NCBI GenBank assembly: GCA_018000835.1
Contig: JAGNJD010000001.1
Coordinates: 137,889 to 201,888, forward strand
Direction: 5' to 3'
Origin: Candidatus Goldiibacteriota bacterium
Lineage (GTDB): Bacteria > Oederibacteriota > PGYV01 > DSYL01
Length of the DNA stretch: 64,000 nucleotides
Shown: one piece after another, positions 12,784 to 55,090 of the stretch
How positions within the stretch are numbered: the stretch's first letter is position 1
Layout of the letters: every line of letters starts with the position of its first letter
The notes under the pieces: model-generated
Databases searched by the model: none
Told to the model about the DNA's origin: nothing
The model's input: the letters and a program-made list of their open reading frames with translations, nothing else
Program-made: the position numbers and the translations under genes

Positions 12784-12822
12784 CTTTTATTTTTAATGAT
12801 ACAACAAACAGTTGGACCCCCT

Positions 12823-27134: not shown

Positions 27135-27156
27135 ATAGCCGTTAAATAATAACAAA

Positions 27157-27191
27157 CCCGATAAGAAGAAATTCTTATCGGGTTTTTTTTT
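27157..27191 (+). terminator. Textbook intrinsic terminator downstream of cspA.
   Basis: Perfect 11-bp stem CCCGATAAGAA/TTCTTATCGGG, GAAA tetraloop, then T9. Confidence 0.8.
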
Positions 27192-27345: not shown

Positions 27346-27753
27346 ATGAGTTTTAAAAAAATTGCTTTTGTTTTAGTTTTGCTCATTTTTATTGCCCTTT
27401 ACGTAGTAGGTAAATCTGATAAAATAGCCACAAAATTACAGGAATTTGCAGATAAAAATTATATTGAAAAAAATATACCAAGGCATGAAAAAATATCATT
27501 TTTTAACATAGAATATTGCTATTGGACGGCAAAATACGAATTTGGTCTTACACTAATTGAAAAATATATGGAAAGATATAATCTGGAAGAAAACAGGGAA
27601 AAAGCACAATACATGAAGGCAAAATACTACGATGCAAATCTAAATCATAGACAGGCAAGTGAAGAATATAAAAAATTTTTTGAGGAATTTCCTTTTTCAA
27701 AAAAAGCAGAAAAAGCAAAACAAAGGTATATGGAAATAAAATCATATTTATAA
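27346..27753 (+). CDS. Small membrane-anchored hypothetical protein.
   Basis: N-terminal TM segment (IAFVLVLLIFIALYVV), then a helical, Lys/Glu/Tyr-rich region; RBS GGAGG upstream. Confidence 0.4.
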   Translation: MSFKKIAFVLVLLIFIALYVVGKSDKIATKLQEFADKNYIEKNIPRHEKISFFNIEYCYWTAKYEFGLTLIEKYMERYNLEENREKAQYMKAKYYDANLNHRQASEEYKKFFEEFPFSKKAEKAKQRYMEIKSYL

Positions 27754-27757
27754 AGAG

Positions 27758-29461
27758 GTGAAAATGAAAAAAACGTTTCTTTTTACTTTTATTTTTATAA
27801 TAATAGCACAAATAAGTTTTTCATCTTCCATACATCTTATAGGCGGGCAATTCGGCATTTCCTTTCCAGGCGGAAAAGAAATAACAGATATTTATCCTGC
27901 AATCGCTACAGACACAAATATATATTCTTATAATACAGGCATAGAATATAATTTTAAATTTTTCCCTTATTTATCCATAGGTGCCGGATGTAATTATTTA
28001 TTTAAAAGTTATCTAATTGATTTTTTAACTAAGCAGATTACTTATAATTACAATGCGGTTGAGCCATACGGAATAGTCCGCGGATATTTACAGGTTATGA
28101 ACGGGATTGACATATTTGCAGGCGCAGGTGCAGGATATAGTTTCCTCATAGGAAGCACGATATCCGACAGTTTAACTGCAACAAAGACAGACGTAAATGG
28201 TTCCGGAGTTTCATTAAAATTCTGTGGTGGTCTTGCTTATGAAGGTTCTGGTTTTACGACAATGCTTGAAGGTGGTTATAAAATAATGACAATTTCACCT
28301 TTAAAAACCAACAGTGGTGAAATTAAAAATAGTGATGATTCTTCTGCTGTTGCAAATTTTGGAGGTCCTTTTATCAATGTTCTAATTTTCCTTTCTTTTG
28401 GAAACAACCAGGAACAAAAAACAAATGGTGAAATAAAAGCAGAAAAACAAACCAGCCGGAACGCACAGGAGCAGACAGGCGAAGTATCAGAAAAAACGGA
28501 AAATATAAATCCAGTTGAAACCCAGGAACAAAGACAGGAAGCAGAAGGAAGCGTCCAACCAGATAAAACCGGTTATGCAACAATGCAGGAAGACGATACC
28601 GAAGGAATAATTATATTATCCCCGGGTGAATCAGAAATAAACGAACTTGAAAAATACATAGCTTCCAAACGCAGACAAATAATTCCGGAAGAAGAAACAA
28701 AAGAAGGCGAAGAAATTGAATTTGAATACGATGCCGAACAGGCCGGGGTGCTTCTCTTAGAAGCAGATGCAAAAAGTAAAGTAGAAAAAGCAGGCTATGT
28801 CCTTGTTGAAAAGGCCGGTTTTATCACAAATAATTTTACTGAAGATGGTTTTATTTTTACGAAAAAAAAAGAAAAAATGTTTTTGTATCCTGCTGATTTT
28901 GCATATATAAGATTAACCGTTGGAAAAAGTGCAAATAAAGGAAAAGAATTCATAATTTACGACGATAGTGAAGACGTTATGGACAATATATCCGGACAGC
29001 CAATGGGAAAAATGATAAATATACTCGGCGTTGCAAAAATAGTTGAACCCGTGGAAAATAATATTTTTAAAGTTCAGATAACAAAGGCTTATGCTCCGAT
29101 AAAAGAAGAAATGAAAATAAAAGAAAGAAATAATATAAGGGATTACCATAGAACATTATCAAAAAAAATCAAAAATAAAAATCTTAACGTGGAAGGTTAT
29201 ATAGTAAAGGTTCAAAAAGACGTCCTAAATATAAAAAACAAAGACATAGTTTATTTAAACGTTGGTGTTTCAAAAGGAATTTTGCCTGGGGAAAAATTAA
29301 ATATTTATCGTAGGACGTATAATAAAGATGAAGATAAAGAAGAAAATTTTCATAAAATCGGCTCGCTTTTGATTATCAATTCCGTCCAGAACTCTTCGGT
29401 TGGTCTGGTAACTGAACAAAATGAATTGATAAATATCGGCGACATAGTAAAAACAAAATAA
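27758..29461 (+). CDS. Secreted hypothetical protein, possibly an outer-membrane beta-barrel with an acidic linker and a C-terminal globular domain.
   Basis: Signal peptide present. The N-terminal ~200 aa has Gly/aromatic alternation typical of OMP barrels. A Glu/Gln-rich low-complexity linker follows. Confidence 0.4.
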   Translation: MKMKKTFLFTFIFIIIAQISFSSSIHLIGGQFGISFPGGKEITDIYPAIATDTNIYSYNTGIEYNFKFFPYLSIGAGCNYLFKSYLIDFLTKQITYNYNAVEPYGIVRGYLQVMNGIDIFAGAGAGYSFLIGSTISDSLTATKTDVNGSGVSLKFCGGLAYEGSGFTTMLEGGYKIMTISPLKTNSGEIKNSDDSSAVANFGGPFINVLIFLSFGNNQEQKTNGEIKAEKQTSRNAQEQTGEVSEKTENINPVETQEQRQEAEGSVQPDKTGYATMQEDDTEGIIILSPGESEINELEKYIASKRRQIIPEEETKEGEEIEFEYDAEQAGVLLLEADAKSKVEKAGYVLVEKAGFITNNFTEDGFIFTKKKEKMFLYPADFAYIRLTVGKSANKGKEFIIYDDSEDVMDNISGQPMGKMINILGVAKIVEPVENNIFKVQITKAYAPIKEEMKIKERNNIRDYHRTLSKKIKNKNLNVEGYIVKVQKDVLNIKNKDIVYLNVGVSKGILPGEKLNIYRRTYNKDEDKEENFHKIGSLLIINSVQNSSVGLVTEQNELINIGDIVKTK

Positions 29462-29621: not shown

Positions 29622-30425
29622 ATGGATGAAAAAACAGCATTTGAAAAATTAAAAGATGCCATATTGAATAAATCAGGGCTTGATTTAAATCAATATAAGG
29701 AAAATTATCTTAAAAGACGTATTGCAGTAAGAATGAGGTCTTTACAGATGATTTCCTATGAGGAATATTTAAAATATATTCTTATCAGGGATGAGGAATG
29801 TGATTTATTACTTGATAAACTTACTATAAACGTTACGCAATTTTTCAGGGACATGGAAGCATTTGAAGAGATAGACAAAAACGTTCTCCCTGATTTAATA
29901 CGAAACAATTTTAGAATAAAAATATGGAGCGCTGGATGTTCAACCGGCGAAGAAGCGTATTCAATTGCAATATTGATGGAAGAAATAGCAGAAAATCTTG
30001 GCATATTAAATTATAGATACAACGTTATAGGAACAGACATAGACGAAAAAGCATTATACAGGGCAAATCTGGGATGCTATGAGGGAAGAACCCTTGATAA
30101 TGTTTCGGCCGAGAGAAAAAAAAAGTATTTTGATTTTGATGGTAAAAATTATATAATAAAAGAAAACATAAAGAAAAAAGTGGAATTTTTAAAATTTAAT
30201 CTAATGGAACCATTTAAAACGGACTATTTTAACGTGATTTTTTGCAGAAACGTCATAATTTATTTTACGAGAGAATTGCAAAATAAGGTTATCGGCTATT
30301 TTTATGATTCATTAAAAGATAACGGCATTTTTGTGATGGGAAAGACAGAAACAATGCTCATTAATTTCAGAAATAAATTTGAATGCTTAAACATAAGGGA
30401 AAGGATATTCATAAAAAGGAAATAA
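29622..30425 (+). CDS. cheR: Chemotaxis protein methyltransferase CheR.
   Basis: N-terminal all-helical domain; SAM-binding IWSAGCSTGEEAYSIAI; ...FCRNVIIYF... Confidence 0.85.
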   Translation: MDEKTAFEKLKDAILNKSGLDLNQYKENYLKRRIAVRMRSLQMISYEEYLKYILIRDEECDLLLDKLTINVTQFFRDMEAFEEIDKNVLPDLIRNNFRIKIWSAGCSTGEEAYSIAILMEEIAENLGILNYRYNVIGTDIDEKALYRANLGCYEGRTLDNVSAERKKKYFDFDGKNYIIKENIKKKVEFLKFNLMEPFKTDYFNVIFCRNVIIYFTRELQNKVIGYFYDSLKDNGIFVMGKTETMLINFRNKFECLNIRERIFIKRK

Positions 30426-30426
30426 A

Positions 30427-31608
30427 ATGGAAACTGCGCAGGACCACATCAATTTAGGACTTGCCTTTACAATATCAAAAAATTACGTAATGGCAATAAA
30501 AGAATTTGAAAAAGCTCTAACGTTAAATCCGGATGATGCAGAAGTCCACGCTCATCTTGCAGACGTTTATGTTTACAAAGGCGATTATAACGGCGCAATA
30601 CAGGAGTATGAAAAAGCATTAAGGATAAATCCCGTTAACGTAAACATAATAATTAAACTTGGTAAGTTGTATGCAAATCTTGGTAAAACAGATAAGGCAA
30701 TTGAACAATACAAACGAGCGATTGAAATTAATCCCGATGACTTAAACATCAGACACGCAATGGGCGATGTTTACGTAAAAATGGAAAAACTTGCTGAAGC
30801 AGAAAAAGAATATAAATACATCCTTGAAAAAGACAGCGATAACATAGAAATAAGGTTTAAAATAGGTTATATTTATGAACTGACGAAAAAATATAAAGAA
30901 GCAGCAATTGAATACGAAAGTGTTTTAAAAAAAAATCCAAAAAGCCATGGTCTGTATTCGATACTTGGTAATATATATAAAAACATGAAAAATTATGATA
31001 AAGCAGTTGAATATTATGAAAAAGCATTACAGATAAATCCCAGGGAAGCAGGCGCTGCATATAATCTTGGAGTAATATATTATGAAAAGGGAGAATATGA
31101 AAAAGCACTTAACGAATTTGAGCGTGCCAAAGAAAATAAATATAAAAGCAGTGAAATACACATAAAAATAGGAGAAATTTACAATAAACTGGGGAAAAAA
31201 GAACAGGCCATTGAAGAATACAAAAAAGTTTCTGAAAAGGGAATTAAAACTGATTTTGAAACTCATAAAGCAATGGGTATTGTTTACTTTGAAGAAGGAC
31301 AACTGGATGAAGCAATCAAAGAATTTGAAATGGCTCTTGAACAAAAAAAAGACGATCCGTTCATATATGAAAATCTCGGACACATCTATTATAAAAAAGT
31401 CGTGTATAATGAATCCAAAACAAATTTTTTAAAAGCCATTGAACTCGGCAGGGAAGACGCTGAAATTTTTTACAAACTCGGCAACATTGCAATGAAAGAA
31501 AACGACCCCAAAAAAGCAAAAGAATACTGGGAAAAATCGTTAAAAATAAATCCCGACAACCAGATAATAATAAAAAATCTTAAATTACTTTCAAGCAGCA
31601 ACATTTAA
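30427..31608 (+). CDS. TPR repeat protein.
   Basis: About ten tandem 34-aa TPR units (AxxxLGxxYxxxGxYxxAIxxYxKALxxxP). Confidence 0.7.
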   Translation: METAQDHINLGLAFTISKNYVMAIKEFEKALTLNPDDAEVHAHLADVYVYKGDYNGAIQEYEKALRINPVNVNIIIKLGKLYANLGKTDKAIEQYKRAIEINPDDLNIRHAMGDVYVKMEKLAEAEKEYKYILEKDSDNIEIRFKIGYIYELTKKYKEAAIEYESVLKKNPKSHGLYSILGNIYKNMKNYDKAVEYYEKALQINPREAGAAYNLGVIYYEKGEYEKALNEFERAKENKYKSSEIHIKIGEIYNKLGKKEQAIEEYKKVSEKGIKTDFETHKAMGIVYFEEGQLDEAIKEFEMALEQKKDDPFIYENLGHIYYKKVVYNESKTNFLKAIELGREDAEIFYKLGNIAMKENDPKKAKEYWEKSLKINPDNQIIIKNLKLLSSSNI

Positions 31609-31619
31609 AGGGAAAATTT

Positions 31620-32228
31620 ATGAACATTCTGAAACAGCAGCAGAAAACCCTGGGGGAATTGCTTATTAATTCAGGCATAATAAACAAAGAACAACTCGAA
31701 ATCGCATTAAATGAACAAAAAAATACGGATGAGCCACTCGGAAAAATTTTAGTCCGTATGGGCTTTGCACGCGAAGAAGATATCATAAACGTTTTAAAAG
31801 GCATGCTTGTCGTAATTTTTGAGATAAACAACGAAAGTTTTGGGGTTGAAATAATATTTGCGAAAGAAATAATAAAATATAAAAAAATAATCCCTTTGCC
31901 CACGGTTTCAAAATACATTAAAGGTCTGATAAGCATCAGGGATATTGTCGTACCCGTTATCAGTTTAAACCAGATTATATACAATAAAGAAGACGTCGTT
32001 ACGGAAGATACCAGAATCATCGTTATAGAAAATAAGGACGACGTTGCGGGCATCCTCGTTGACAAAGTCGTTGCCGTAAAAAATTTTCATACGGGTGATT
32101 TTGAAAAGTTAAGCAATAATTCGGTTAATGCTGAAAAAAAATACATCGCAGGAATCATAAAAGATAAAAACGGAATTATTACCCTTATAAAACCTGAATT
32201 TATATTCTCGGGGAAAATATATGTCTGA
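31620..32228 (+). CDS. CheW-like coupling protein with an N-terminal MshEN/T2SSE_N-like (putative c-di-GMP-binding) domain.
   Basis: The N-terminus has two ~24-aa MshEN-type motifs, LGELLINSGIINKEQLEIALNEQ and LGKILVRMGFAREEDIINVL. The C-terminal 140 aa is CheW-like (FGVEIIFAKEII...GLISIRDIVVPVISL...AGILVDKVVAV). Confidence 0.6.
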   Translation: MNILKQQQKTLGELLINSGIINKEQLEIALNEQKNTDEPLGKILVRMGFAREEDIINVLKGMLVVIFEINNESFGVEIIFAKEIIKYKKIIPLPTVSKYIKGLISIRDIVVPVISLNQIIYNKEDVVTEDTRIIVIENKDDVAGILVDKVVAVKNFHTGDFEKLSNNSVNAEKKYIAGIIKDKNGIITLIKPEFIFSGKIYV

Positions 32229-34413
32229 TAATACCGTTGCCCCGGTCAGAAAACAAAACGATGATAACAGTGCAATTGAACATAACAACGCAGGTGTTTA
32301 TTATTATTCAAAAGGAATGTATCAGGAAGCAATTGAAGAATTCAAAAAAGCGTTAAGCATAAATCCATCCTACGTTCAGGCTCAGGCAAACCTGAAAGCT
32401 GTAAATAAACAAACGGGAATATACGACAGAGCCATACTTGCATATAAAAAAGTCCTGCAAATGAGGTCGGATGACCCCGATGCTTTTTTTAATCTGGGAC
32501 ATGCACTAACCTATACCGGTGAATATAAAGAAGCCATAAAATATCTCACAAAAACACTTGAGTTGAATCCAGAGCACATAATTGCACAGAATCTGCTTGG
32601 AATAATTTATAAAAATACGGGAGAAATTGACAGGGCAGAGCAGGTTTTCAGGGAAGCCTTAAAAAAATACCCTAATTTTGTAGAACTAAATAATAACCTG
32701 GGGGAAACTCTTTATAAAAAAGGTTTGTATGAAGAAGCAGAAAGTTACCTGAAACAGGCAATAAAATTAAACAAAGAATATGCCATTGCTTATTACAACC
32801 TTGGTTTTGTATACGGAGAACTAGGCAGGAATGAAGAAGCAAATGCATGCTACAACAGGGCAATTGAATTAAATCCTTCTTTTATAAAATCAAATAAAAG
32901 TTTAATAATTGACTATCATGAAACAGCCGGCGTAAAACGTGAAGCAGAAATTGAAAACCTGAGCGATGACAGAAAAGCAGAGGCATTTTATCATCTTGCC
33001 AGCGTTTACAAAATGAAAGGATATATTGACGACGCAATTACGCAGATAAAAAGAGCAATAACTTTAAATACGAAAAATCCAAATTATTACAATTTTTTTG
33101 GCGAGTTATTGATAAAAAAAGGCATGGTAAAAGATGCCGTTGAAATCTTCAAACAAACCATAAAAATTGAACCATCTTTCTTTGAAGCAAAATTAAACAT
33201 AGCGGTTGCATACAGGGAAATGAAAGAATTTGACAGGGCAAGAGAAGTCATTAAAACAATCAAAGAAGAAAATCCGGAATTCACAAGGGATGACCTGCAT
33301 CTTGGAATAATAGATTATAAGGAAGAAAAAATAGAAGAAGCCATTGAAAAGTTTATGTCACAATTAAAAAAAGAACCTTATGACGACGAATCTCATTATT
33401 ACCTGGGGCTCTGTTTTTACAAAAAAAAGGGGTATGACATGGCTATTACGGCGCTTCGCAGGGCAATTGAGCTTACTCCGGCTTACATTAAAAAACCGGA
33501 AGTAAACCTTTATCTCGGGCTCGTTCTTACGGACAAAAACAGATATGACGAAGCAATCGTTGAGTACCAAAAGGTTCTATCCGTGCAGCCGGATAATGCA
33601 GTTGCACACAACAGCATGGGGGTTGCTTATAAAAATCTCGGCAATCTTGACAGAGCAATAGATGAATACAAAAAAGCAGTTTTAATAGACAAAAATTATT
33701 ATAAGGCCTATAACAACCTTGGAGTTGCTTATTACAAAAAAAATTTTTTTGATGAAGCAGAAAAATATTTCAAAAAAGCACTGGAAATCGAGCCCGGCTA
33801 CGAAGTTGCCAGAAAAAACCTTGAATCCGCACAAAAAAAAGACGTAATTTTTAAAGAAACCATTGACAGATTGCAGGAAAAAATAAAGGAAAAACCGGAT
33901 GAACCTTCATTTTATTATGACCTTGCAAACGCATACAGAAACACTGGACATTTAAAAGACGCTATTGTAAAATATAAAAAAGTAATTGAATTGCAACCCG
34001 AAAACGTTGATGCCTGTAATAATCTGGGTATGGTTTACATGGAAGACGGGAATTATGACGAAGCAATAAAGGTCTTTATAAATGTCCTTTCAAAGGATTC
34101 AAAAAATTCCAGAGCACATTTATTGCTCGCAGATGCTTATTGCAAAAAAGAATGGTGGGATGAAGCAGACATAGAATACCATAAAGCCCTTGAATTAAAC
34201 AACGACCTTGAAGAAGTATTTTTCAAACTTGGAGAAGTATACAGACAAAAATCATGGTGGGATGAGGCAATTGAAATGTGGACAAAATATCTGGATAGAA
34301 ACGATGGCTCTGAAATGGCAAGACAGGCACAGGAAAACATAAGAATGATTGAACTGTGGAAAAGGGAATTTCTGATTTCGCCTTCCCAGAGCAATCGCAA
34401 AATTATTAAGTAA
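32221..34413 (+). CDS. Large TPR repeat protein (730 aa).
   Basis: More than 15 TPR units; start overlaps the upstream gene stop. Confidence 0.7.
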   Translation: MSDNTVAPVRKQNDDNSAIEHNNAGVYYYSKGMYQEAIEEFKKALSINPSYVQAQANLKAVNKQTGIYDRAILAYKKVLQMRSDDPDAFFNLGHALTYTGEYKEAIKYLTKTLELNPEHIIAQNLLGIIYKNTGEIDRAEQVFREALKKYPNFVELNNNLGETLYKKGLYEEAESYLKQAIKLNKEYAIAYYNLGFVYGELGRNEEANACYNRAIELNPSFIKSNKSLIIDYHETAGVKREAEIENLSDDRKAEAFYHLASVYKMKGYIDDAITQIKRAITLNTKNPNYYNFFGELLIKKGMVKDAVEIFKQTIKIEPSFFEAKLNIAVAYREMKEFDRAREVIKTIKEENPEFTRDDLHLGIIDYKEEKIEEAIEKFMSQLKKEPYDDESHYYLGLCFYKKKGYDMAITALRRAIELTPAYIKKPEVNLYLGLVLTDKNRYDEAIVEYQKVLSVQPDNAVAHNSMGVAYKNLGNLDRAIDEYKKAVLIDKNYYKAYNNLGVAYYKKNFFDEAEKYFKKALEIEPGYEVARKNLESAQKKDVIFKETIDRLQEKIKEKPDEPSFYYDLANAYRNTGHLKDAIVKYKKVIELQPENVDACNNLGMVYMEDGNYDEAIKVFINVLSKDSKNSRAHLLLADAYCKKEWWDEADIEYHKALELNNDLEEVFFKLGEVYRQKSWWDEAIEMWTKYLDRNDGSEMARQAQENIRMIELWKREFLISPSQSNRKIIK

Positions 34414-34420: not shown

Positions 34421-34759
34421 ATGAAAAAAATTACGGTAATAATACCACCAAACAAATTTGATAATTTAAAGAAAAAACTGATAGAAGACGGAGTAAAAGG
34501 CATTACAATAACCAGAGTTGATGGTTTTGGATACGAAAAAAAACAGATGGACGTTTTGAAAAACAAGGAAATACTAATTGAATCGCTGCCAAAAATAAAA
34601 CTGGAAATCGTATTAAAAGATAACGAAGTTGACGACGTTATAAACAGCATAATAGCCGTAACAAGAACAGGCAGATTGGGCGATGGTAAGATATTTGTAT
34701 CGGAAATAACCGACGTCATAAGAATTAGAACCGGCGAGAGAAAAGAAGATGCGTTATAA
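34421..34759 (+). CDS. P-II (GlnB/GlnK family) signal-transduction protein homolog.
   Basis: The 112-aa product aligns with GlnB along its whole length: MKKI.VIIPP.KFD.L...L...GV.G.T.T.V.GFG...; ...RTGRLGDGKIFVSEITDVIRIRTGE. The T-loop lacks the Tyr51 uridylylation site. Confidence 0.75.
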   Translation: MKKITVIIPPNKFDNLKKKLIEDGVKGITITRVDGFGYEKKQMDVLKNKEILIESLPKIKLEIVLKDNEVDDVINSIIAVTRTGRLGDGKIFVSEITDVIRIRTGERKEDAL

Positions 34760-34779: not shown

Positions 34780-35145
34780 ATGTCAAAAAAAGTATTACTT
34801 GCTGATGACGCTTCTTTTATGCGCATGATGCTCAGGAACATACTTGAACCAGCAGGTTTTACAATAGTTGGCGAAGCATCAAACGGAAGAGAAGCCATAG
34901 AGTTATATAAAAAATTAAAACCTGACGTTTTTATTACGGACATGATAATGCCGGAAATTGGCGGTATTGACGTCGTCCGTGAGTTAATAAAGGAATTTCC
35001 TGACGCCAACATAATTATATGTAGTGCCATCGGGCAGCAGACCCTTGTGATAGAAGCCATCCAGGCAGGTGCAAAGGATTACATAGTAAAACCTTTTGAA
35101 CAGGCAAACGTCCTGGAAACAATAAATAAAATAATAGAAAAATAA
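34780..35145 (+). CDS. cheY: Chemotaxis response regulator CheY.
   Basis: Single REC domain with the DD pair (LLADDASFMR), the phospho-acceptor Asp (FITDMIMP) and the conserved Lys (YIVKPF). Confidence 0.85.
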   Translation: MSKKVLLADDASFMRMMLRNILEPAGFTIVGEASNGREAIELYKKLKPDVFITDMIMPEIGGIDVVRELIKEFPDANIIICSAIGQQTLVIEAIQAGAKDYIVKPFEQANVLETINKIIEK

Positions 35146-35146
35146 C

Positions 35147-35770
35147 ATGCAAAACGAAAAACTTACCGACATGCAAAGAGATGCATTAAAAGAACTTGGA
35201 AATATTGGTGCAGGAAGCGCGGCAACCGCACTTTCCCAGCTTCTTGGCAAAGACATTAAATTAAACGTTCCTGACGTAACGATCATTCCAATTGAAAAAG
35301 TAAACGAAAAAATAGCAAAACACCAGCAGATAATAGCAGCCGTTTATTTGCGTATCTATGGTGAAATACAGGCAAGAGCACTCCTTATTCTTCCACAGGA
35401 TAAAATATTTTATATAATTGATCTTCTTATGAAAAAAAAACTGGGCACCACGAGAGAATTCGGTGAAAATGAACAATCGGCAATAAAAGAAATCGGTAAC
35501 ATAATTATCTCTTCGTATCTGAATGCTCTTGCAAAATTCATCGGCTTAAATTCAGTTCCTTCCGTACCTGCCCTTGCCGTTGACATGGCAGATGCCATTA
35601 TACAAACCATTTCTGCAGAACTTGCAGAAGTAGGCCCCGATGCTTTTCTTATAGAAAACGAAATGGTAGAAAAAGAAATAGATCTTTCTACCACTCTTTT
35701 AATATTGCCTGAAATGACTTCTATGAAAAAAATATTAAAAGCATTAAATGATACCATAAAAGGTTCATAA
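35147..35770 (+). CDS. cheC: CheC-family CheY-P phosphatase.
   Basis: Two internal repeats carry the E-x2-N motif (ALKELGNIGAGSAATALS and AIKEIGNIIISSYLNALA). Confidence 0.8.
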   Translation: MQNEKLTDMQRDALKELGNIGAGSAATALSQLLGKDIKLNVPDVTIIPIEKVNEKIAKHQQIIAAVYLRIYGEIQARALLILPQDKIFYIIDLLMKKKLGTTREFGENEQSAIKEIGNIIISSYLNALAKFIGLNSVPSVPALAVDMADAIIQTISAELAEVGPDAFLIENEMVEKEIDLSTTLLILPEMTSMKKILKALNDTIKGS

Positions 35771-35778: not shown

Positions 35779-36249
35779 ATGGCTCACATAAACGTAGAAA
35801 TGGGACAACTAAAAATCGGGAAGTATAACGACGTACTGACTGCTTATGGCATAGGTTCCTGCGTCGTCGTTATTTGTTATGACAGGATAAATCCGGTTGC
35901 AGGAATGCTCCATGGAATATTACCGGAAAAACCTGCAAAAAAATCCGGTGAAAACAGATACATAAACAGCGGAATAGAAAATTTGATAAAAACTTTGCTT
36001 GACATGGGCGTAAGCATAAAAAACATTGATGCAAAGATTCTTGGCGGAGCGAGCATGTTTGACGTAAAATTGAGCAGCGATACCATAGGAGAAAGAAACA
36101 TTAAAATGGCAAAGGAAGTGCTTACAAAAAAACAGATAAAAATAACCGGCGAAGATACCGGCTTAAATTACGGCAGAAATGTTGAATTTTTCGTTGAAAC
36201 GAAAAAAACAGTGATAAAAAGTTTTACGCATGGCTTAAAATACATTTAA
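35779..36249 (+). CDS. cheD: Chemoreceptor glutamine deamidase CheD.
   Basis: The conserved active-site Cys is present (GIGSCVVVICYD) with the HGILP context. Confidence 0.8.
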   Translation: MAHINVEMGQLKIGKYNDVLTAYGIGSCVVVICYDRINPVAGMLHGILPEKPAKKSGENRYINSGIENLIKTLLDMGVSIKNIDAKILGGASMFDVKLSSDTIGERNIKMAKEVLTKKQIKITGEDTGLNYGRNVEFFVETKKTVIKSFTHGLKYI

Positions 36250-36262: not shown

Positions 36263-37531
36263 ATGAACAAAACAAAACAGCGTTTAACTATATTTACGCA
36301 ACTTATAATTATAAATGTCATAATCGGAATTCTTGTCGTTGCATCAATAGTGATTATGTCTATTTTAAACAAAATAGAGGTAAAGAGTTTAAGTTTCTTT
36401 CTGCTATGTGCAGGTGCATTTACGCTCATGATAATTGCAAACGCTTTTATATCAATGAATATAATTTTTTCCCAGACCGACGTCATCTCAAAAGAAAGCA
36501 AAAAAATAGCAAATGGTGATTTAACCATCCGGTTGATTAAAGAGGAAGGCCCGTTTGGCCAGATTACCGAATCCATAAATCAGATAACTGATGGAATAAA
36601 ATCTATCGTCAAAAAAGTAAACGAGTCCATAGAATCCATAATGACAATGGTTGAAAACCTGTCTGCATCGACGCAGGAGATAAACGCAAGCAGTGAGGAA
36701 ATTGCCTCCACGGTCCAGCAGATAGCGCGGGGAGTTGAGCAGCAGGCAAACAGGACGTCCGAAACCTCAAGAATTATGGAAAAAATGTCCGATTCAATAC
36801 AAAACGTCGCAAAAAAATCAGAAGACGTTTTAGAGGTCTCAACTAACGCAAGACAGGCAACGGACAAAGGGATTTCGGCAATGAATGAAATAACAAAAAA
36901 AATGGAAGGAATAGTAGAAGCAACGAACAATGCAAAAAATTCCATATCTGAATTACGCATTTATTCAGATAAAATAGAAGAGATAGTTAACATAATAACA
37001 GAAATTGCGGATGAAACCAACCTTCTCGCTTTAAACGCTGCAATTGAAGCGGCGAGAGCCGGAGAAGCAGGACGTGGATTTGCAGTAGTGGCAGACGAGG
37101 TCAGAAAACTTGCAGAAGGTTCAGCCGGTGCAGCAAAGGAAATTTCAAAATTGGTTGAGGAAATACATGAAAAAACAAAAACAGTTGAAAAAGCGGTTTT
37201 AAAAAGCGTTGAAGAAAACGAAAAAGGTAAAAAAGCCGTATATACGAGTGAAGATGCATTAAAAGAAATTGACATGATTGTCGGAAAAGTGGTCGACATT
37301 GCAAAAGAAATTTTTAATCTTACGCGACAACAGGCAGAAGATACGGATAAAGTCGTAAAAGCAGTGGAAGAGATTTCAGCAGTTGCGGAACAAACAGCGG
37401 CGGGCACACAGCAGGCATCTGCTTCAACGCAGGAACAAACTGCGTCAATGCAGGAAATAGCTGCACAGGCACAGGAACTGGCACAAACGGCCGAAGCCCT
37501 TAAAAATTCAATCAAAAAATTTAATTTTTAA
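36263..37531 (+). CDS. Methyl-accepting chemotaxis protein (two TM segments, HAMP, MCP signalling domain).
   Basis: Has the highly conserved hairpin-tip [39 protein letters not shown] and methylation heptads. Confidence 0.85.
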
Positions 37532-37541: not shown

Positions 37542-38033
37542 ATGGAAAAAAAAGTCGTGGGTTTTAAATTAAAAGAAGAAGAGTTTGCGTTTGACATTAT
37601 GAAAGTCATTGAAATAATAAAACTAAAAGAAATAACTGAGGTTCCGACCGCCCCTGATTTTATAGAAGGCGTAATTAATTTAAGAGGCAAAATAATCCCT
37701 ATAATTGATTTAAGAAAAAGATTTAACGTGGACATTGAAGAAAGGGACAAAAACTACAGAATAATAATAGTTGAAATTTCCCAATCCCAGAACGTGGGAA
37801 TAATAGTCGACGAAGTCACAAAGGTCTTTTCGGTTACCGATGAGCAGACAATGCCTGTGCCGCAGACGGTGAGTCAGGCAGGCGGTAAATATATTGAATC
37901 AATAATTAAAATTGACGACAGAATTATTATCCTTCTGGATGTGGAAAAAATTTTTACGGAATCAGAAAAAATAGAATTAAACGACATCATTAACGTAGAC
38001 GGAGGTCAAATTGAAAAAAGTCCTGGTAGTTGA
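37542..38033 (+). CDS. cheW: Chemotaxis coupling protein CheW.
   Basis: FAFDIMKVIEII...VPTAPDFIEGVINLRGKIIPIIDLR...VGIIVDEV. Confidence 0.85.
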   Translation: MEKKVVGFKLKEEEFAFDIMKVIEIIKLKEITEVPTAPDFIEGVINLRGKIIPIIDLRKRFNVDIEERDKNYRIIIVEISQSQNVGIIVDEVTKVFSVTDEQTMPVPQTVSQAGGKYIESIIKIDDRIIILLDVEKIFTESEKIELNDIINVDGGQIEKSPGS

Positions 38034-38376
38034 TGATACAAAATTTATGAGGGATATTTTAAAAAACATATTGAAAAAAAAAGAACTTGAAATAATCGGG
38101 GAAGCCTCAAACGGCAAAGAAGCCGTATTAAAGTATCAGGAACTAAAACCAGATCTGGTTACCATGGACATTATAATGCCCGAGATGGACGGCATAGAAG
38201 CAGTAAAAAAAATAATGCAGATAGACCCGTCTGCTCGCATCCTGATGTGCAGTGCGATGGGGCAGCAGGCACTCGTTATTGAGGCAATTCAATCAGGAGC
38301 CAGGGATTTCGTAATAAAGCCGTTTCAGCCGGCAAGAGTACTTGAGGCGGTTGACAGGGCACTACAGGGAGAATAA
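38011..38376 (+). CDS. cheY: Chemotaxis response regulator CheY (second copy).
   Basis: VLVVDDTKFMR...VTMDIIMPEMDG...FVIKPF. Confidence 0.85.
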   Translation: MKKVLVVDDTKFMRDILKNILKKKELEIIGEASNGKEAVLKYQELKPDLVTMDIIMPEMDGIEAVKKIMQIDPSARILMCSAMGQQALVIEAIQSGARDFVIKPFQPARVLEAVDRALQGE

Positions 38377-38378: not shown

Positions 38379-39443
38379 TTGGAACCCATAAAAGTTCTTG
38401 TGGTTGACGATTCTTCGTTTATGCGTAAAATCATTCCACAACTGCTTGAAGAAGACAGCGAAATAAAAGTGATAGACTCGGCCAGGGACGGCATGGAAGC
38501 GCTGAAAAAAATACAACGGTTAAGGCCGGACGTCGTAACTCTGGACATTGAAATGCCGGGTATGAACGGTCTGGAGACGCTATGCAAAATAATGAAAGAT
38601 TATCCAATGCCGGTCATAATGCTTTCGGCCTATACGCCGGAAGGTGCTGAAATAACGTTAAAAGCTCTCGAATATGGTGCAATTGATTTTATAAGAAAAC
38701 CTTCCGGAGAAATATCCCTTGACATCAAAAAAGTCCAGAAAGAACTCATAGAAAAAATTAAAATTGCAAAAACTATAGACCTCTCAAAACTCAAATGCAT
38801 AACAAAAAAAGAATTCACGATTGATAAGTCTTCCGGATTAAATGCCGAAATGGTAAAAACTCTGGTTATAATCGCTGCTTCAACCGGCGGTCCCAGAGCA
38901 CTCTATGAAATACTGCCAAAACTTGAAAAGAAAAATTTTCCGGTTTCTTTTCTTGTCATCCAGCACATGTCTTCCGGTTTTACAAGCACGCTTGCATCGC
39001 GTCTTAATTCAATTTCCATGCTAAACGTAAAAGAAGCCGAAGATGGTGAGGAAATACTGCCTGAAACAATTTACATAGCCCCTGGGAATTTTCATATGGG
39101 AATTAAAAACATCAATGACAAAATTTACGTTTTGTTAAACCAGGAACCGGCAATGCATGGAGTAAGGCCGGCTGCCGACATGACAATGGTATCGGTTGCA
39201 AAAAATTTTAACGGCAGCATAATTTCCGTAATACTTACGGGCATGGGAAAAGACGGAACAGCCGGTGCAGAAAAAATAAAAGAAAAAGGCGGCAGGGTAA
39301 TAGCCCAGGATAAGGAAACCAGCGTAATTTTTGGAATGCCGAGGATTGCAATTGAAAAAGGCGTAGTCGACGTCGTAGCACCGCTCCAGAAAATTTCTGA
39401 AATCATTAATGTGGAAATTGAAAAAATGCTGGAGAAAAAATGA
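38379..39443 (+). CDS. cheB: Protein-glutamate methylesterase CheB (REC plus methylesterase).
   Basis: N-terminal REC domain (VLVVDDSSFMR...VTLDIEMPGMNG). The C-terminal domain has the catalytic Ser (IAASTGGP), His (IQHMSSGF) and Asp (GMGKDG). Confidence 0.9.
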   Translation: MEPIKVLVVDDSSFMRKIIPQLLEEDSEIKVIDSARDGMEALKKIQRLRPDVVTLDIEMPGMNGLETLCKIMKDYPMPVIMLSAYTPEGAEITLKALEYGAIDFIRKPSGEISLDIKKVQKELIEKIKIAKTIDLSKLKCITKKEFTIDKSSGLNAEMVKTLVIIAASTGGPRALYEILPKLEKKNFPVSFLVIQHMSSGFTSTLASRLNSISMLNVKEAEDGEEILPETIYIAPGNFHMGIKNINDKIYVLLNQEPAMHGVRPAADMTMVSVAKNFNGSIISVILTGMGKDGTAGAEKIKEKGGRVIAQDKETSVIFGMPRIAIEKGVVDVVAPLQKISEIINVEIEKMLEKK

Positions 39444-41425
39444 ACATAGAAAATTACAAAGACGTTTTTCTGGAAGAGGCGGAAGAAAATATTAAAAATT
39501 TTAACATATCTCTCGTAATTTTTGAAAAAAACACCGATGATTTAACACCGTTAAACGAACTTTTCAGAATTGCGCATACAATAAAAGGCATGGCTGCAAC
39601 AATGGGTTATGACAGACTTACTGAATTTACGCATAACCTCGAAGAAATCCTTGATAACATCAGAAACGGGTCGTTACCTGTGTCCAGAAATATAATAAAC
39701 ATTCTCTATAAAAGCATTGATGCCATCCAGGAATTTATCGAAAATATAAAAGAAAAAAACTCTGATTTTGCCGGTAACACAAAGGAAATAATGGCAGCAA
39801 TCAGGGACGTATTGAAATATTCCGGTAAAAAAGAAATAAAAGAAGAAACGAAAGCAGAACAGGAATCACCGGAAGAAAAAATCGTTATTCCCGAAAACGT
39901 CATTGAAGAAGCACATTCACGCGGACTTAAGGTTTACATAGTAAAAGTTTACGTATCCCATTCATGCACCTTTAAAAACGTCAGAGCATTTATGATTGTC
40001 CGGAACCTTTCTGAAAAAGGTGAAATTATTAATTCCATACCTTCATCAAAAAACATAGAAGACGGAAATTTTGAGAAAATGATACAATTTGGTTTTGTTT
40101 CAAAGTTAGAAATTGCAGACATAGAAAAAGCAGTCATGAAAATATCCGAGATTGAAAAAGTTGAGGTTTTTCCAGTGGAAAAGCCGGTGCAGATGGAAAA
40201 AAACACAGAAGAAATTTCGGAAGAAGAAACATCAAGGGAGAAAAAAATTTCTGCCATTCCGCAGAATGTGCGCATAAACGTTGAAAAAATAGATGCTTTG
40301 ATGAACCTGGTCGGCGAACTCGTCATAACCAAAATTCGTCTGGACCAGATAACAAAAGAGAAAAAATTTCAATTGCTCAGAGAAGCAGTGGACGAGTTTG
40401 ACAGAATAATAAACCAGTTGCAAACAGAGGTAACGGACGTACGTATGCTCCCGGTTTCTCATATTTTTGAAAAATATCCGCGCATCATAAGAGACCTGGC
40501 CGTTGAATCCGAAAAGGAAATTGATTGTGAAATAGTCGGCGGCGACATAGAACTGGACAGAACCGTCCTGGAAGAAATAAACGAACCACTTCTTCACCTG
40601 GTGCGTAACGCGGTTTCGCACGGCATAGAAACCCCTGAGCAGCGCGAAATAGCAGGTAAACCCAAAAAAGGTCTCATAAAAATCGAAGCGAAAAGGGAAA
40701 AAAATTCCGTTCTGATAGAGGTTTCTGACGACGGCAGGGGAATATCGCTGGAAAAAGTAAGAAAAAAAGCAATAGAAAAAAACATCATCACGGAAGAACG
40801 TGCAAAATATATGAACGACGACGAGATAATAAATCTGATTGCAATACCAGGATTTTCAACGTCAGAAAAAGTTGATAAAATATCAGGAAGAGGCGTAGGC
40901 GTAGACGTCGTAAAAACAAAGGTTGAAAGGTTTGGAGGGCTTTTAAAAATAGAGAGTTACGAAGGTGAAGGGTCAAAATTCATAATGAAACTTCCTTTGA
41001 CGCTCGCGATTATCCAGTCGTTGCTCATAAAATCCGGAAAATCAACTTTTGCTCTGCCGGTTACGCACGTCGCGGAAATACTCGAAATAAACCGTGCAGA
41101 ACTTAAAAAAATACAAAAAAAAGACGTTATAATATTAAGAGGTGAAATCATTCAGGTCGTTCCTCTTTGTGAATTATTACACAGAAAAAAAACGGAAGAA
41201 AAAGAAATTATGAACCTTGTTGTGGTTGAATCAAGGGACAAACGCATAGCAATAGAAGTTGACGAGGTTTTATGTCAGCAGGAAATAGCAATTAAAAGTC
41301 TGGGAGATTTTTCAAAATATGCAAAAGGTTTTTCCGGGGTTACGATTCTTGGAGACGGCAGCATAAGCCTGATTCTAGACATACAGGCCCTGCTTGAAGG
41401 GATGGCCGTAAGCACAAACGCTTAA
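39440..41425 (+). CDS. cheA: Chemotaxis histidine kinase CheA.
   Basis: P1/Hpt domain with the phosphorylatable His (IAHTIKGMAATMGY). P4 HATPase (NAVSHGIE...DDGRGI...GRGVGVDVV). C-terminal P5 CheW-like domain. Confidence 0.9.
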   Translation: MNIENYKDVFLEEAEENIKNFNISLVIFEKNTDDLTPLNELFRIAHTIKGMAATMGYDRLTEFTHNLEEILDNIRNGSLPVSRNIINILYKSIDAIQEFIENIKEKNSDFAGNTKEIMAAIRDVLKYSGKKEIKEETKAEQESPEEKIVIPENVIEEAHSRGLKVYIVKVYVSHSCTFKNVRAFMIVRNLSEKGEIINSIPSSKNIEDGNFEKMIQFGFVSKLEIADIEKAVMKISEIEKVEVFPVEKPVQMEKNTEEISEEETSREKKISAIPQNVRINVEKIDALMNLVGELVITKIRLDQITKEKKFQLLREAVDEFDRIINQLQTEVTDVRMLPVSHIFEKYPRIIRDLAVESEKEIDCEIVGGDIELDRTVLEEINEPLLHLVRNAVSHGIETPEQREIAGKPKKGLIKIEAKREKNSVLIEVSDDGRGISLEKVRKKAIEKNIITEERAKYMNDDEIINLIAIPGFSTSEKVDKISGRGVGVDVVKTKVERFGGLLKIESYEGEGSKFIMKLPLTLAIIQSLLIKSGKSTFALPVTHVAEILEINRAELKKIQKKDVIILRGEIIQVVPLCELLHRKKTEEKEIMNLVVVESRDKRIAIEVDEVLCQQEIAIKSLGDFSKYAKGFSGVTILGDGSISLILDIQALLEGMAVSTNA

Positions 41426-41437: not shown

Positions 41438-42061
41438 ATGGAAAATAAACAGGAACTAAATCTTACGGAAGCGCAGATTGATGCATTAAAAGAGGTTGGA
41501 AACGTTGGTGCAGGTCACGCTGCAACCGCTCTATCCCAGCTTATAAAGAAAAAAATAATGATAACTGTCCCGGAAGTAAAAATAATAGGGTTGCAGGAAG
41601 TTCCGGGCTTAATAGGCGATTCCCAATCCCTTGTTGCAGGCGTCATTATGAACGTCCTGGGAGACATAACAGCTAAAATACTTTTGCTGCTTACCAGGGA
41701 AAGTGCACTATCCCTTGCCGACATGCTTTTACAAAAAAAGCCCGGCACGACAAAAGTTTTATCCGAGATAGGAAACTCTGCAATAAAGGAAACCGGAAAC
41801 ATTTTATCCGGTGCATACATGAATGCGTTAAACGAATTTCTGGGATTAATACTTCTGCCATCGGTACCGACGCTTGTTTTTGACATCGCAGGCGCGGTTC
41901 TTTCTGCCGTATCCGACGGTTTCGAAGGTGTATCGTCAAAAATATTGTCAATTGAAACGCAATTTTCAGAGACAAACGATAAAATAATAAAAGGCTATTT
42001 GTTGCTCATTCCTGACGTTTTGTCTGTAAGCGTCATTTTAGATGCAATAAAAGTAAAATAA
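41438..42061 (+). CDS. CheC-family phosphatase, paralog 2 (CheC/CheX/FliY-type).
   Basis: IDALKEVGNVGAGHAATALS...AIKETGNILSGAYMNAL. It is ~75% identical to the product of 45747-46373. Confidence 0.75.
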   Translation: MENKQELNLTEAQIDALKEVGNVGAGHAATALSQLIKKKIMITVPEVKIIGLQEVPGLIGDSQSLVAGVIMNVLGDITAKILLLLTRESALSLADMLLQKKPGTTKVLSEIGNSAIKETGNILSGAYMNALNEFLGLILLPSVPTLVFDIAGAVLSAVSDGFEGVSSKILSIETQFSETNDKIIKGYLLLIPDVLSVSVILDAIKVK

Positions 42062-42106: not shown

Positions 42107-44221
42107 ATGTTGACTTTTGCACTTGACATAGGAACCAGAAAAGTAGCAGGTATTTTAGGTCTGCAACAGGGAGAAAAAATAAAAATCGTTGATGCCGTGG
42201 TAAAAGAACATAATAAAAGATCCATGTATGACGGCCAGATACATAACATAGAAGAAGTTACTGCAATTGTTCGTTCAATAAAATCAGAACTTGAGGAAAA
42301 AAACAAAATAAAACTTTCAACGGTGTCTTCGGCACTTGCAGGCAGGGACCTTTATATCCAGACGTCATTTTCTGAAATAAACAAAAAGGGCGAAATAACA
42401 AAGGAAGACGTTTCTTTTGCCGAAATGGAAAGCGTAAGAAAGGCATGTGAGCAGTTAACCGAAAAACAAAAGAGGGAATATTACTGCGTTGGTTATTCTA
42501 CGGTTGCGTATCAGATAGACGGAGTCCCGATAAAAAATCCTTTATACCAGTTTGTCAGGAATAGTTTCAGTGTTGAAACCATTGCAACGTTTTTACCAAG
42601 GATGACTCTCGAATCAATGCTTGCCGTTTTGAAAAACAGTGGACTTGAAATAGAAACGATAACGCTGGAACCGATAGCAGCATTAAACGTAACAATTCCC
42701 GACGACATGCGGCTTTTAAACCTTGCGCTCGTTGACGTCGGAGCAGGCACGTCAGACGTTGCCATAACCGACAAAGGTAAAATAATTTCCTATGGCATGA
42801 TTCCTAAGGCAGGCGACGAAATAACAGAAGAAATATGTTCAAAATTTCTCGTTGACTTTAACGAAGCAGAAAAAATAAAAAGAACCATATCAGAAAAAAC
42901 AATTGTTGAATCGTCCAACATATTTAACAAAAAAATATCGGTCACGTCTGACGACTTCACGGCAGCGGTGGAAGAAAAAGTCAATGAAATTGCAAAGGAG
43001 ATTGCAGATACCATACTACAGTTAAACAAAAAACAACCTGCTGCAGTCGTAATGGTTGGCGGCGGAAGCGGGCTGAATTTGTTAAAAGAAAAAATTGCAG
43101 ATAATCTTGGTCTGCCTCATAGCAGGGTTGGCAGCAGGACCCCGCTTAACATATTAAATCTTGAAAACCTGCCTGAGAGGTTACTTGGCACGGAAGCCAT
43201 AACGCCGCTTGGCATTCTCGACGCCGCGGTGTTCAAACGCGGACTCGGGTTCATAGACGTTTATTTGAACGAAGAAAAAGAACACATAATAAACCTTGAA
43301 CAGGAAATAAAAGTCATTGACGTTCTTACAAACCGTGGAATTGACATGAAAAAACTTTACGGCAGGCCGGGCAATGCCATCACTTTTACCTTAAACGGGG
43401 AATTAAAAATAATAAGAGGCGAAAAAGCAGAACATGCAAAAATATTCATAAACAACGACGAAAAAGACATCTATTCAACCGTAAAGCAGGGTGACAAAAT
43501 ATTCATAACAAACGCAAAAGACGGTATGGACGCATCGGTTACCGTAAAACAGGTTATTTCACAAAACGACGTTCTGACCGTCTCAATAAACGGCGAAAAT
43601 CACACAATTTATCCCGACGTTTACGTTGACGAAAAACAGGTGACAGACATAAACGAAACGATAAACGACAGGGCAGACGTTTACGTCAGAAAAACAGATG
43701 CGTTAAAAGACGTCCTGCTAAAAGCAGGTCTTTCAATCGGGAAAACCGAAGAGAGGGACATCATAATCACGGTTAACAACGAACCGCTCACGCTAAAGCA
43801 GAGAAACTTCCGGCTTAAAGTAAATGGCATGGACGTTTCGCCGGATTACAAAGTAAAAAACATGGACAAAATAGAATATAAGGAAACTCCGTCGTATTAT
43901 AAAATAAAAGACATAATAAAAAACAGAAAAACTACGATTACGGTCAAAATAAACGGGAAGCCGTTTGAAATAGAACATACGGGCAGGGACATATACATGA
44001 ACGGAAAAAAGGCAGATGAAAACGAGTTCATAATAAACGGTGCAAACATAGAAGTAAAAATGAGCGAAGTAAGACCAATGCTTTCGTCAATTTTCCGGGT
44101 ATACCCCATTGACAGGGAACAGATGAGAGGCAGGATGCTCGAAATAAAATTAAACGGTGAAAAAGCAGGTTATACGACTGAAATCCGCGACGGTGACGAA
44201 ATAGAAATTCTGTTTGTATGA
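42107..44221 (+). CDS. FtsA/PilM-like actin-fold (ASKHA) ATPase with a ~330-aa C-terminal array of ThiS/MoaD-like beta-grasp-type repeats.
   Basis: N-terminus FALDIGTRKVAGILGL (phosphate-1), LALVDVGAGTSDVAI (phosphate-2) and VVMVGGGSGL (adenosine motif). The domain order resembles FtsA, including an SHS2-like insert. The C-terminal half holds ~9 repeats of a hydrophobic-x-hydrophobic-NGE motif and ends ...LNGEKAGYTTEIRDGDEIEILFV, which resembles the ThiS C-terminus but lacks the terminal GG. Confidence 0.5.
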   Translation: MLTFALDIGTRKVAGILGLQQGEKIKIVDAVVKEHNKRSMYDGQIHNIEEVTAIVRSIKSELEEKNKIKLSTVSSALAGRDLYIQTSFSEINKKGEITKEDVSFAEMESVRKACEQLTEKQKREYYCVGYSTVAYQIDGVPIKNPLYQFVRNSFSVETIATFLPRMTLESMLAVLKNSGLEIETITLEPIAALNVTIPDDMRLLNLALVDVGAGTSDVAITDKGKIISYGMIPKAGDEITEEICSKFLVDFNEAEKIKRTISEKTIVESSNIFNKKISVTSDDFTAAVEEKVNEIAKEIADTILQLNKKQPAAVVMVGGGSGLNLLKEKIADNLGLPHSRVGSRTPLNILNLENLPERLLGTEAITPLGILDAAVFKRGLGFIDVYLNEEKEHIINLEQEIKVIDVLTNRGIDMKKLYGRPGNAITFTLNGELKIIRGEKAEHAKIFINNDEKDIYSTVKQGDKIFITNAKDGMDASVTVKQVISQNDVLTVSINGENHTIYPDVYVDEKQVTDINETINDRADVYVRKTDALKDVLLKAGLSIGKTEERDIIITVNNEPLTLKQRNFRLKVNGMDVSPDYKVKNMDKIEYKETPSYYKIKDIIKNRKTTITVKINGKPFEIEHTGRDIYMNGKKADENEFIINGANIEVKMSEVRPMLSSIFRVYPIDREQMRGRMLEIKLNGEKAGYTTEIRDGDEIEILFV

Positions 44222-54626: not shown

Positions 54627-55090
54627 ATCAACCACCTCCTTTTTTAATATTGTTGTTTTTTTATTAAGCATAAGGCGTGCCAGGAAAAACAAAAATAAGA
54701 TATGCATTTTTATTTCTTTTGTTAAAATTTGAAACAAGCAGAAGTAAAAAAATGAAACAACATTCATTTATGCGTTTCATAATTATATACAGATATATCA
54801 TTAAAATGCTTAATAAACTTAATGGGAGGATTGTTTCATTTTTTGCAACAAATTTTTTGCTCACTTCAATCAGGTCTTCGTTTACCTGTACTTATCTAAT
54901 AAAATTTAATTTTTAATATTGCAATTTTATTTTTTTATAGTATAATGTGTATAATTAAATATTGGATTTATTAACAATTATGTTAATAATATGTTGATAA
55001 GTTTGTAGATAATATGTTAATAAATAAAAAACTCTTTTATTTATTATATTTTATTGCATATTTAAAATTTTTTATTGTTTATATTGTTTT

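Follow-up and report, generated by a model that had tools for sequence, protein, structure and literature searches.

This study concerns a gene for a P-II signalling protein located inside a chemotaxis (che) operon, at positions 34421-34759 of a 64,000-nucleotide stretch of DNA (hereafter the window) from contig JAGNJD010000001.1 of a Candidatus Goldiibacteriota bacterium. We found that this gene is an integral and conserved member of the main chemotaxis operon of Goldbacteria, that it is tightly coupled genetically to the preceding gene, which encodes a protein of 730 residues made of TPR repeats (TPR-730), and that its product is a genuine GlnB/GlnK-type P-II protein, yet neither a GlnB nor a GlnK equivalog. 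The reading we favour, to which we assign a probability of roughly 55%, is that a dedicated GlnB/GlnK-type P-II paralogue has been recruited as a built-in part of this operon, where it would report metabolic state to the chemosensory array via TPR-730. This suggests that, in Goldbacteria, decisions on motility may take the energy or carbon state inside the cell into account.

Family identity, ligand pocket and T-loop

The gene, read on the forward strand from ATG to TAA, encodes 112 residues that match the Pfam P-II family (PF00543) over the full model (positions 1-102 of 102; E=9.2e-26, 90.6 bits against a cut-off of 25). When compared with solved structures, the protein aligned without gaps to 41 P-II chains (E values from 8e-31 to 3e-10), the best solved relative being GlnB of Aquifex (2eg1; E=7.8e-31, residues 1-111). 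This family match is far beyond chance. The C-terminal half contains the blocks TGRLGDGKIFV and VIRIRTGE; we take the TGxxGDGKIF region to be the PROSITE P-II C-terminal signature. An AlphaFold2 monomer model, built from a 46-sequence alignment with a mean pLDDT of 91, predicts strands at residues 2-8, 29-35, 56-65 and 90-95 and helices at residues 10-22 and 67-81, that is, the double beta-alpha-beta ferredoxin-like fold. The top Foldseek matches of this model in the PDB were S. elongatus PII with 2-oxoglutarate (2-OG), E. coli GlnK and other GlnB/GlnK proteins (TM-scores of 0.83-0.88); the 50 matches listed were P-II proteins throughout, mainly GlnB/GlnK (0.79-0.88), and SbtB, PstA/DarA, CutA and CPII were not among them. 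A PII-like identity (SbtB, CutA, PstA) was rejected, as a profile of the protein's own clade gave about 14 bits (E~0.5) to SbtB/PII-like chains and 89-146 bits to GlnB/GlnK.

The assignment to the GlnB/GlnK type is thus based on the Pfam profile, the alignments to solved structures, the predicted fold and the low SbtB/PII-like scores. An earlier note, made from the sequence of the window alone, had described a 112-residue P-II protein collinear over its full length, including the C-terminal block, and this description is confirmed here. The same note had considered that the protein might belong to a P-II-like clade with a non-signalling function; the clade found is of the GlnB/GlnK type, and not of the SbtB, CutA or PstA type. 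The NCBIfam equivalog models for GlnB (NF008111; 106.2 bits, cut-off 202) and GlnK (NF007946; 100.5 bits, cut-off 181) both scored the window protein far below their cut-offs, and a dedicated model for its clade was not found in NCBIfam. In public databases the window-type protein is annotated as 'P-II family nitrogen regulator', and an identical protein is annotated from metagenome-assembled genomes (MAGs) of Candidatus Goldbacteria.

Homologues of the window protein fall into three groups by identity to it, at 83-86%, 52-65% and, for canonical P-II, about 45-56%. The first two groups share in the alignment a distinctive T-loop, and we refer to them as che-type P-II. A profile search with this clade retrieved about 65 clusters (at 90% identity) scoring 166-188 bits, with the window protein at 178 bits; below a gap in the scores come canonical P-II proteins, at no more than 150 bits, and a few divergent che-type sequences. 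The che-type group was monophyletic in a neighbour-joining tree (bootstrap 437/500), and the window protein is a member of this clade, which is restricted to the che operon. Identity is 0.59 within the che-type clade, in one phylum, vs 0.72 for canonical P-II across phyla, and by this comparison the che-type clade seems to evolve faster than canonical P-II. Its rate of divergence is about equal to those of CheR and the CheW-like adaptor of the same operon, and the ratio of nonsynonymous to synonymous substitution rates (dN/dS) of 0.015-0.115, for pairs with unsaturated dS, indicates strong purifying selection. Four other high-scoring sequences of 133-182 residues (P0121, P0034, P0139 and P0140), from metagenome contigs of 0.6-4.4 kb, were excluded from the clade; they look like misassemblies or tandem-repeat collapses rather than fusions, because they hold canonical P-II segments that are duplicated or out of order.

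A column-by-column comparison of 29 che-type and 17 canonical P-II sequences separated the positions that are retained from those that have changed. Residues G35, G37, K40, T83, G84, R85, G87, D88, G89, K90 and F92 are invariant across both groups, as are R101, R103 and T104-G105. E106 is a glutamate in 28 of the 29 che-type sequences, and K60 and E62 are nearly invariant. The GDGK residues of the B-loop and both arginines of the C-loop are invariant over a che-type clade that spans 41-86% identity. Among the retained residues are the B-loop and, in the C-loop, the two basic residues by which P-II proteins hold the phosphates of the nucleotide (PMC3198391). ATP/ADP binding by che-type P-II is likely, because the residues of the nucleotide pocket are conserved.

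The effector site is less uniform. The Mg ion between ATP and 2-OG has a single protein ligand, Q39, and K58 also has an effector-site role (PMC3198391); the site further takes in the backbone of residues 37-41. In the che-type clade, position 39 is Q in 16 sequences, E in 11 (the window protein included) and R in 2, while position 58 is K in 21, again including the window protein, and R in 8. G41 is never kept, being replaced by K, R or S, and neither is R38, in whose place stands a hydrophobic or aromatic residue. We therefore consider 2-OG binding by che-type P-II uncertain, given E39 in the window protein, the clade-wide replacement of G41 and R58 in 8/29 sequences.

The T-loop and the adjoining beta1/beta2 surface have been rewritten. 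Compared with the canonical proteins (E. coli GlnB and GlnK, S. elongatus PII, Aquifex 2eg1), the window protein has the same length of 112 residues, aligns without gaps at 45-50% identity, shares the predicted fold, and retains the B-loop GDGKIF, the C-loop RxR, K58 and a Q/E at position 39. In contrast, its T-loop reads GFGYEKKQMDVLKNKEILIE where the canonical loop reads GFGRQKGHTELYRGAEYxVD, and R38, G41, H42, Y46, R47 and Y51 are gone. The canonical T-loop is near-invariant as GFGRQKGHTELYRGAEY, which is wholly unlike the che-type loop. The changes in the window protein are R38 to Y, Q39 to E, Y46 to L, R47 to K and Y51 to I, so that residues 46-51 read L-K-N-K-E-I; the earlier note had pointed to a T-loop without Tyr51, and the loss of R38, Y46 and R47 can now be added. 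In canonical P-II, Y51 is the uridylylation/adenylylation site, in the motif Y-[KR]-G-[AS]-[AE]-Y. Of the 29 che-type sequences, 27 have V, I, M or T at position 51, Tyr being kept only in the divergent pair of the L026 type, and position 47 varies among K, E, D and V. R47 of canonical P-II is the residue that plugs Amt (PMC3198391). The clade has a T-loop signature G-[FY]-G-[YFVI]-[QE]-K-[KRS], without R38, Y46 or R47 and, outside the L026-type pair, without Y51; the window protein carries this signature.

The columns that separate che-type from canonical P-II are 5, 6, 9, 11, 13 and 15, in beta1 and the start of helix 1, then 32 and 34, and in the T-loop 38, 41-47, 49, 51 and 54; K9, F11 and L13 on the beta1 surface are among the canonical residues changed. 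It is through the T-loop and the neighbouring face of beta1 that P-II proteins bind AmtB, NAGK, PipX and other targets. Retained pocket residues together with altered contact residues form the pattern expected of a paralogue that would have kept its sensor and changed its client.

At two loci of the clade the T-loop deviates from the common form. The P-II of locus L016 (CAWJRG010000005.1, 12803-13153) has a 4-residue insert, KNVK, within the loop, showing that T-loop length in the che-type clade is not strictly fixed. The P-II of locus L026 (CBDUZI010000059.1, 4243-4581; P0152, P0181) has another T-loop, GFGIRRSQIKNKVNRNYMVE, with R39, Y51 and R58.

Conservation of the gene within the che operon

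In the window, the P-II gene lies between the TPR-730 gene and cheY, 7 nt after the stop of the former and 20 nt before the latter, among neighbours typed by Pfam as che genes, as the earlier note had proposed. The genes form one long string on the forward strand, with a che operon of 15-17 genes; no terminator-like site was seen on this strand in the stretch from TPR-730 to cheY. A strong bidirectional terminator, at 27154-27185, lies upstream of the string. The absence of a glnA/amtB/nifHD context, also claimed earlier, holds for the whole 64-kb window, in which glnA, amtB, nif, ntr and any other nitrogen genes are missing, as is a second P-II; the remaining genes are housekeeping genes such as proS, coaX, dnaJ, queA, rtcB, recA, thiC, dnaA and gyrA.

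We assessed the conservation of this arrangement with two probes. Ten clade members, looked up by P-II sequence at 52-85% identity, all had the order TPR-730 (about 730 residues), P-II, CheY in the same operon (10/10). The second probe was blind to P-II: the CheW-like protein of the operon was scanned against species-representative genomes, which gave 17 genomes with the operon, and among the 15 contigs that reached the slot, 14 carried P-II. Combined, the two probes gave 21 different P-II sequences, each of them in this one slot, and none of the 21 distinct loci read (about 20 kb each, 10 kb on either side) had linked amtB, glnA, nif or ntr genes. The possibility that close relatives lack the gene in the same operon, which the earlier note had raised, is answered by these counts, and a random or recent insertion is ruled out by synteny down to about 40% operon identity and by the dN/dS values.

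The MAGs of the relatives are labelled Goldiibacteriota, candidate division FCPU426, 'uncultured Spirochaetia' or 'Firmicutes'. Because FCPU426 and Goldbacteria are one lineage (PMC7031533), and because the genes flanking the loci, proS and a cold-shock gene among them, are syntenic, we treated the carriers as one phylum plus one distant unclassified lineage. The latter is represented by L026, one of the 14 carriers, whose operon proteins are only about 40% identical to those of the window. This unclassified MAG is from a much more divergent lineage, and it keeps the order TPR-730, P-II, CheY.

The genetic coupling of P-II to TPR-730 is seen in the overlap of the two genes and in their joint loss. 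In most relatives, the stop codon of TPR-730 overlaps the start codon of P-II (ATGA), and otherwise the gap is -1 to +7 nt; the spacer from P-II to cheY is 20-79 nt long and has its own Shine-Dalgarno site. The only operon without P-II, at locus L023 of a Goldbacteria-type MAG (CAZMGF010000036.1), lacks exactly TPR-730 and P-II and retains all other operon genes, including those for TPR-393 (the second all-TPR protein of the operon) and an HD-GYP protein. There, at 6718-6866, a spacer of 147 nt leads from the stop of the CheW-like gene to cheY, and over its final 40 nt or so it is homologous to the spacer between P-II and cheY in the close relative L022 (region compared: 10600-13196). A rough mirror-tree comparison with P-II distances gave r=0.85 for TPR-730, 0.82 for the CheW-like protein and 0.79 for CheD, with the first CheY worst, a weak ranking that is only a hint. 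TPR-730 is the presumed partner or scaffold of P-II.

The genes of the operon in the window, all on the forward strand, are as follows.

27346-29461, forward: two upstream open reading frames of 135 and 567 residues, found by tblastn before CheR (or HD-GYP) in all relatives
29622-30425, forward: CheR methyltransferase (Pfam CheR, CheR_N)
30427-31608, forward: TPR-393 (Pfam TPR families), in all loci including L023
31620-32228, forward: CheW-like adaptor of 202 residues (Pfam CheW at residues 64-196), conserved in all loci
32221-34413, forward: TPR-730, an all-TPR protein of 730 residues with 12 TPR_2 stretches
34421-34759, forward: che-type P-II
34780-35145, forward: CheY, first copy, 121 residues (Pfam Response_reg; GGAGG before the ATG)
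35147-35770, forward: CheC-type phosphatase, first copy (Pfam CheC)
35779-36249, forward: CheD (Pfam CheD)
36263-37531, forward: methyl-accepting chemotaxis protein, MCP (Pfam MCPsignal, weak HAMP match)
37542-38033, forward: CheW (Pfam CheW)
38011-38376, forward: CheY, second copy (Pfam Response_reg)
38379-39443, forward: CheB methylesterase (Pfam CheB_methylest, Response_reg)
39440-41425, forward: CheA histidine kinase (Pfam Hpt, P2, H-kinase_dim, HATPase_c, CheW)
41438-42061, forward: CheC-type phosphatase, second copy (Pfam CheC)
42107-44221, forward: FtsA/PilM-like protein of 704 residues (Pfam FtsA, PilM_2, MreB_Mbl), after the second CheC in relatives

The two upstream open reading frames probably belong to the same transcription unit as the che genes. 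The hydropathy profile of the MCP shows two transmembrane helices about 6 residues apart, a distance so short that the receptor has no periplasmic ligand-binding domain.

Possible function and competing explanations

The mechanism we propose for the che-type P-II is as follows. The protein would form a trimer that binds ATP or ADP, possibly Mg-ATP with 2-OG, and the bound ligand would set the conformation of the new T-loop. Through this loop, P-II would bind TPR-730 in an effector-dependent manner. The accessory module of TPR-393, the CheW-like adaptor, TPR-730 and P-II would dock on an array made up of the sensor-less MCP, CheW and CheA. The kinase output of CheA, and hence CheY phosphorylation, would then be biased by the energy or carbon state of the cell, giving a metabolism-dependent taxis. 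Such an input is biologically plausible, since Goldbacteria are described in published genome papers as cellulolytic fermenters that, unlike their sister phyla, have flagellar genes.

Several points weigh against this proposal. Goldbacteria are uncultured and all data come from MAGs or metagenomes, from which function, oligomeric state, ligands and partners have been inferred. The partnership with TPR-730 rests on the gene overlap, on one co-deletion in a single MAG contig and on a weak mirror-tree signal, given about equally by the CheW-like protein and CheD. The bootstrap support for che-type monophyly falls to 235/500 once the T-loop is masked. The effector site differs from that of canonical P-II in the loss of R38, the replacement of G41, Glu39, found in the window protein and the members closest to it, and Arg58 in part of the clade; ATP/ADP may therefore bind with changed affinity, and the ability to bind 2-OG, above all, may have disappeared. 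Furthermore, the output of this che system may be non-flagellar, or not flagellar alone, and che-type P-II may have a dual role.

A more specific version of the same idea makes the P-II trimer a stoichiometric component of the array, whose redesigned T-loops would attach to TPR-730, the CheW paralogue or both at the three-fold axes, so that CheA would be gated by the ratio of ATP to ADP and possibly by 2-OG, in a manner likened to the capping of the AmtB trimer by GlnK. We offer it tentatively, as a possibility that is rather doubtful as it stands. If it were true, this would be the first P-II-controlled chemosensory array, providing receptor-independent metabolic-state taxis in a cellulose-degrading phylum.

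It is also conceivable that metabolite sensing has been lost and that P-II serves only as a structural subunit of three-fold symmetry, or as an assembly factor, of a complex of TPR proteins and chemoreceptors. Many paralogues recruited into complexes turn ligand-blind, and the faster evolution of the clade is in line with such a change. Nevertheless, the invariance of the GDGK residues and of both C-loop arginines over so wide a range of identity is hard to explain unless nucleotide is still bound, and the low dN/dS speaks in the same direction. We consider a purely structural role improbable.

Least probable, and to a similar degree, are two explanations that place the direct targets of P-II elsewhere. 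According to the first, the protein is an ordinary nitrogen/carbon regulator, acting on AmtB, glutamine synthetase or transcription targets and merely co-transcribed with the che genes. The canonical length, fold and nucleotide pocket, the identity of about 50% to GlnB and the public annotation would all fit such a regulator. However, they have to be set against the far-too-low equivalog scores, the replacement of the whole T-loop, including the Amt-plugging R47 and the modification site Y51, and the phylum-wide fixation of the slot between TPR-730 and cheY with translational coupling. Moreover, the gene was lost jointly with the TPR gene and not with any nitrogen gene, nitrogen genes are missing both from the window and from the loci of about 20 kb, and the clade is more divergent within its one phylum than canonical P-II is across phyla.

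According to the second, P-II acts on c-di-GMP signalling, for example on the HD-GYP phosphodiesterase encoded upstream, and any effect on motility is indirect. Most operons of the 52-65% identity group do have an HD-GYP gene (HD_5) directly before cheR, and the P-II protein GlnZ of Azospirillum brasilense interacts with both a diguanylate cyclase and a phosphodiesterase, depending on 2-OG, with altered aerotaxis in the glnZ mutant (PMC7646526). Yet the HD-GYP gene is missing from the operon in the window and in loci L001, L015 and L032, all of which have P-II, and present in L023, which has lost it; with presence and absence uncoupled in both directions, HD-GYP was rejected as an obligate partner. 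In addition, four genes separate HD-GYP from P-II, whereas P-II overlaps TPR-730.

Comparison with known systems places the proposed recruitment in context. Few metabolic sensors are as widespread as P-II proteins, whose known targets are transporters, metabolic enzymes and nitrogen/carbon transcription or two-component regulators. Their genes can be co-transcribed with those of direct targets, as in glnK-amtB, nifI1I2-nifHDK and sbtA-sbtB, often with translational coupling. The che-type gene is coupled to its neighbours in the same way, here TPR-730 and the che genes, with the difference that the presumed target is a TPR scaffold or a chemosensory array and not a transporter or metabolic enzyme; at every locus examined it lies inside the che operon, unlike the canonical genes beside amtB, glnA or nif. 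GlnZ of A. brasilense, which binds c-di-GMP enzymes and whose loss alters aerotaxis, offers a precedent for a P-II protein influencing taxis according to 2-OG or energy status, which for che-type P-II is only proposed (PMC7646526). In contrast to che-type P-II, GlnZ is a canonical nitrogen P-II encoded elsewhere, acting by the indirect c-di-GMP route, with no che linkage and no dedicated paralogue.

Energy-state input to motility is usually explained by Aer receptors, crosstalk from the phosphotransferase system (PTS) or indirect c-di-GMP effects. The di-iron protein ODP is encoded in che operons of Treponema and Thermotoga, where it is paired with a receptor without a sensor domain of its own. 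Metabolic inputs to chemotaxis include the PTS, which acts on CheA in E. coli, and accessory sensors, ODP among them (PMC6978683). Like ODP, che-type P-II would be a small cytoplasmic sensor encoded in a che operon with an MCP that has no periplasmic domain. Unlike PTS and ODP, it has the P-II fold, presumably as a trimer, and a proposed ligand set of adenylates and possibly 2-OG, and it is accompanied by two large TPR proteins and a CheW paralogue. No report of a P-II gene in a che operon, or of P-II contacting Che proteins, was found in a full-text literature search that left subscription journals mostly outside, nor did a TPR scaffold or chemosensory array come up there as a P-II target; in the papers on Goldbacteria/FCPU426, the P-II gene of the che operon is not discussed and canonical P-II genes of the phylum are not mentioned.

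We regard the che-type P-II as a known sensor module that has a new target surface and a conserved place in a new signalling context. If this is true, chemosensory machinery would constitute a new class of P-II targets, and there would be a testable molecular route from the internal energy or carbon state to motility bias. The clade would represent a natural experiment on how the T-loop of a P-II protein is refashioned to suit a different partner, with retention of the ligand pocket. Although the phylum is uncultured, the proteins are small and soluble, and recombinant assays of ligand and partner binding are feasible.

Further features of the operon and the window

Apart from P-II, several proteins of the operon show features of their own. 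The CheW-like adaptor has an extra N-terminal domain of about 60 residues with the motif xLGELLxxxGxIxxEQLxxALxEQ...EPLGKILV, in which many positions are invariant phylum-wide (L001-L027); this domain alone has distant matches in other phyla (L028-L031). A likeness to the c-di-GMP-binding MshEN/T2SSE_N domain was considered and not confirmed, as there was no T2SSE_N match; in Pfam, the N-terminus gave only sub-threshold DUF4388 matches, in 8/8 orthologues, with a best E value of 2.6e-4. The 567-residue protein encoded upstream of cheR has a weak FlgT_C-like C-terminus. The MCP, the only one that the operon encodes, keeps a length of 421-429 residues in relatives, and its gene is missing from the divergent L026 operon. 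The FtsA/PilM/MreB-like protein, which has a weak ThiS-like match at its C-terminus, closes the operon in all relatives; in the window, its gene is followed by a B12-binding radical-SAM gene (44241-45566, forward) and a third CheC-type gene (45747-46373, forward).

The HD-GYP gene (HD_5) before cheR in most relatives, as at 3833-5215 of L003, is not there in the clade of the window. In the window, a membrane protein of sCache-HAMP-HD-GYP architecture is encoded 22 kb away, on the opposite strand (6138-7424, reverse).

A side observation concerns the replication origin. The strand switch and cumulative GC-skew minimum near 26-27 kb were considered as a candidate site and were not supported, as no DnaA-box cluster was found there. 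Matches to the DnaA box (TTATCCACA, at most 1 mismatch) cluster instead on both sides of dnaA (55091-56476), where 7 of the 27 in the window lie at 54946-55098 and 56657-56855. Because of this clustering, the chromosomal origin is probably near dnaA.

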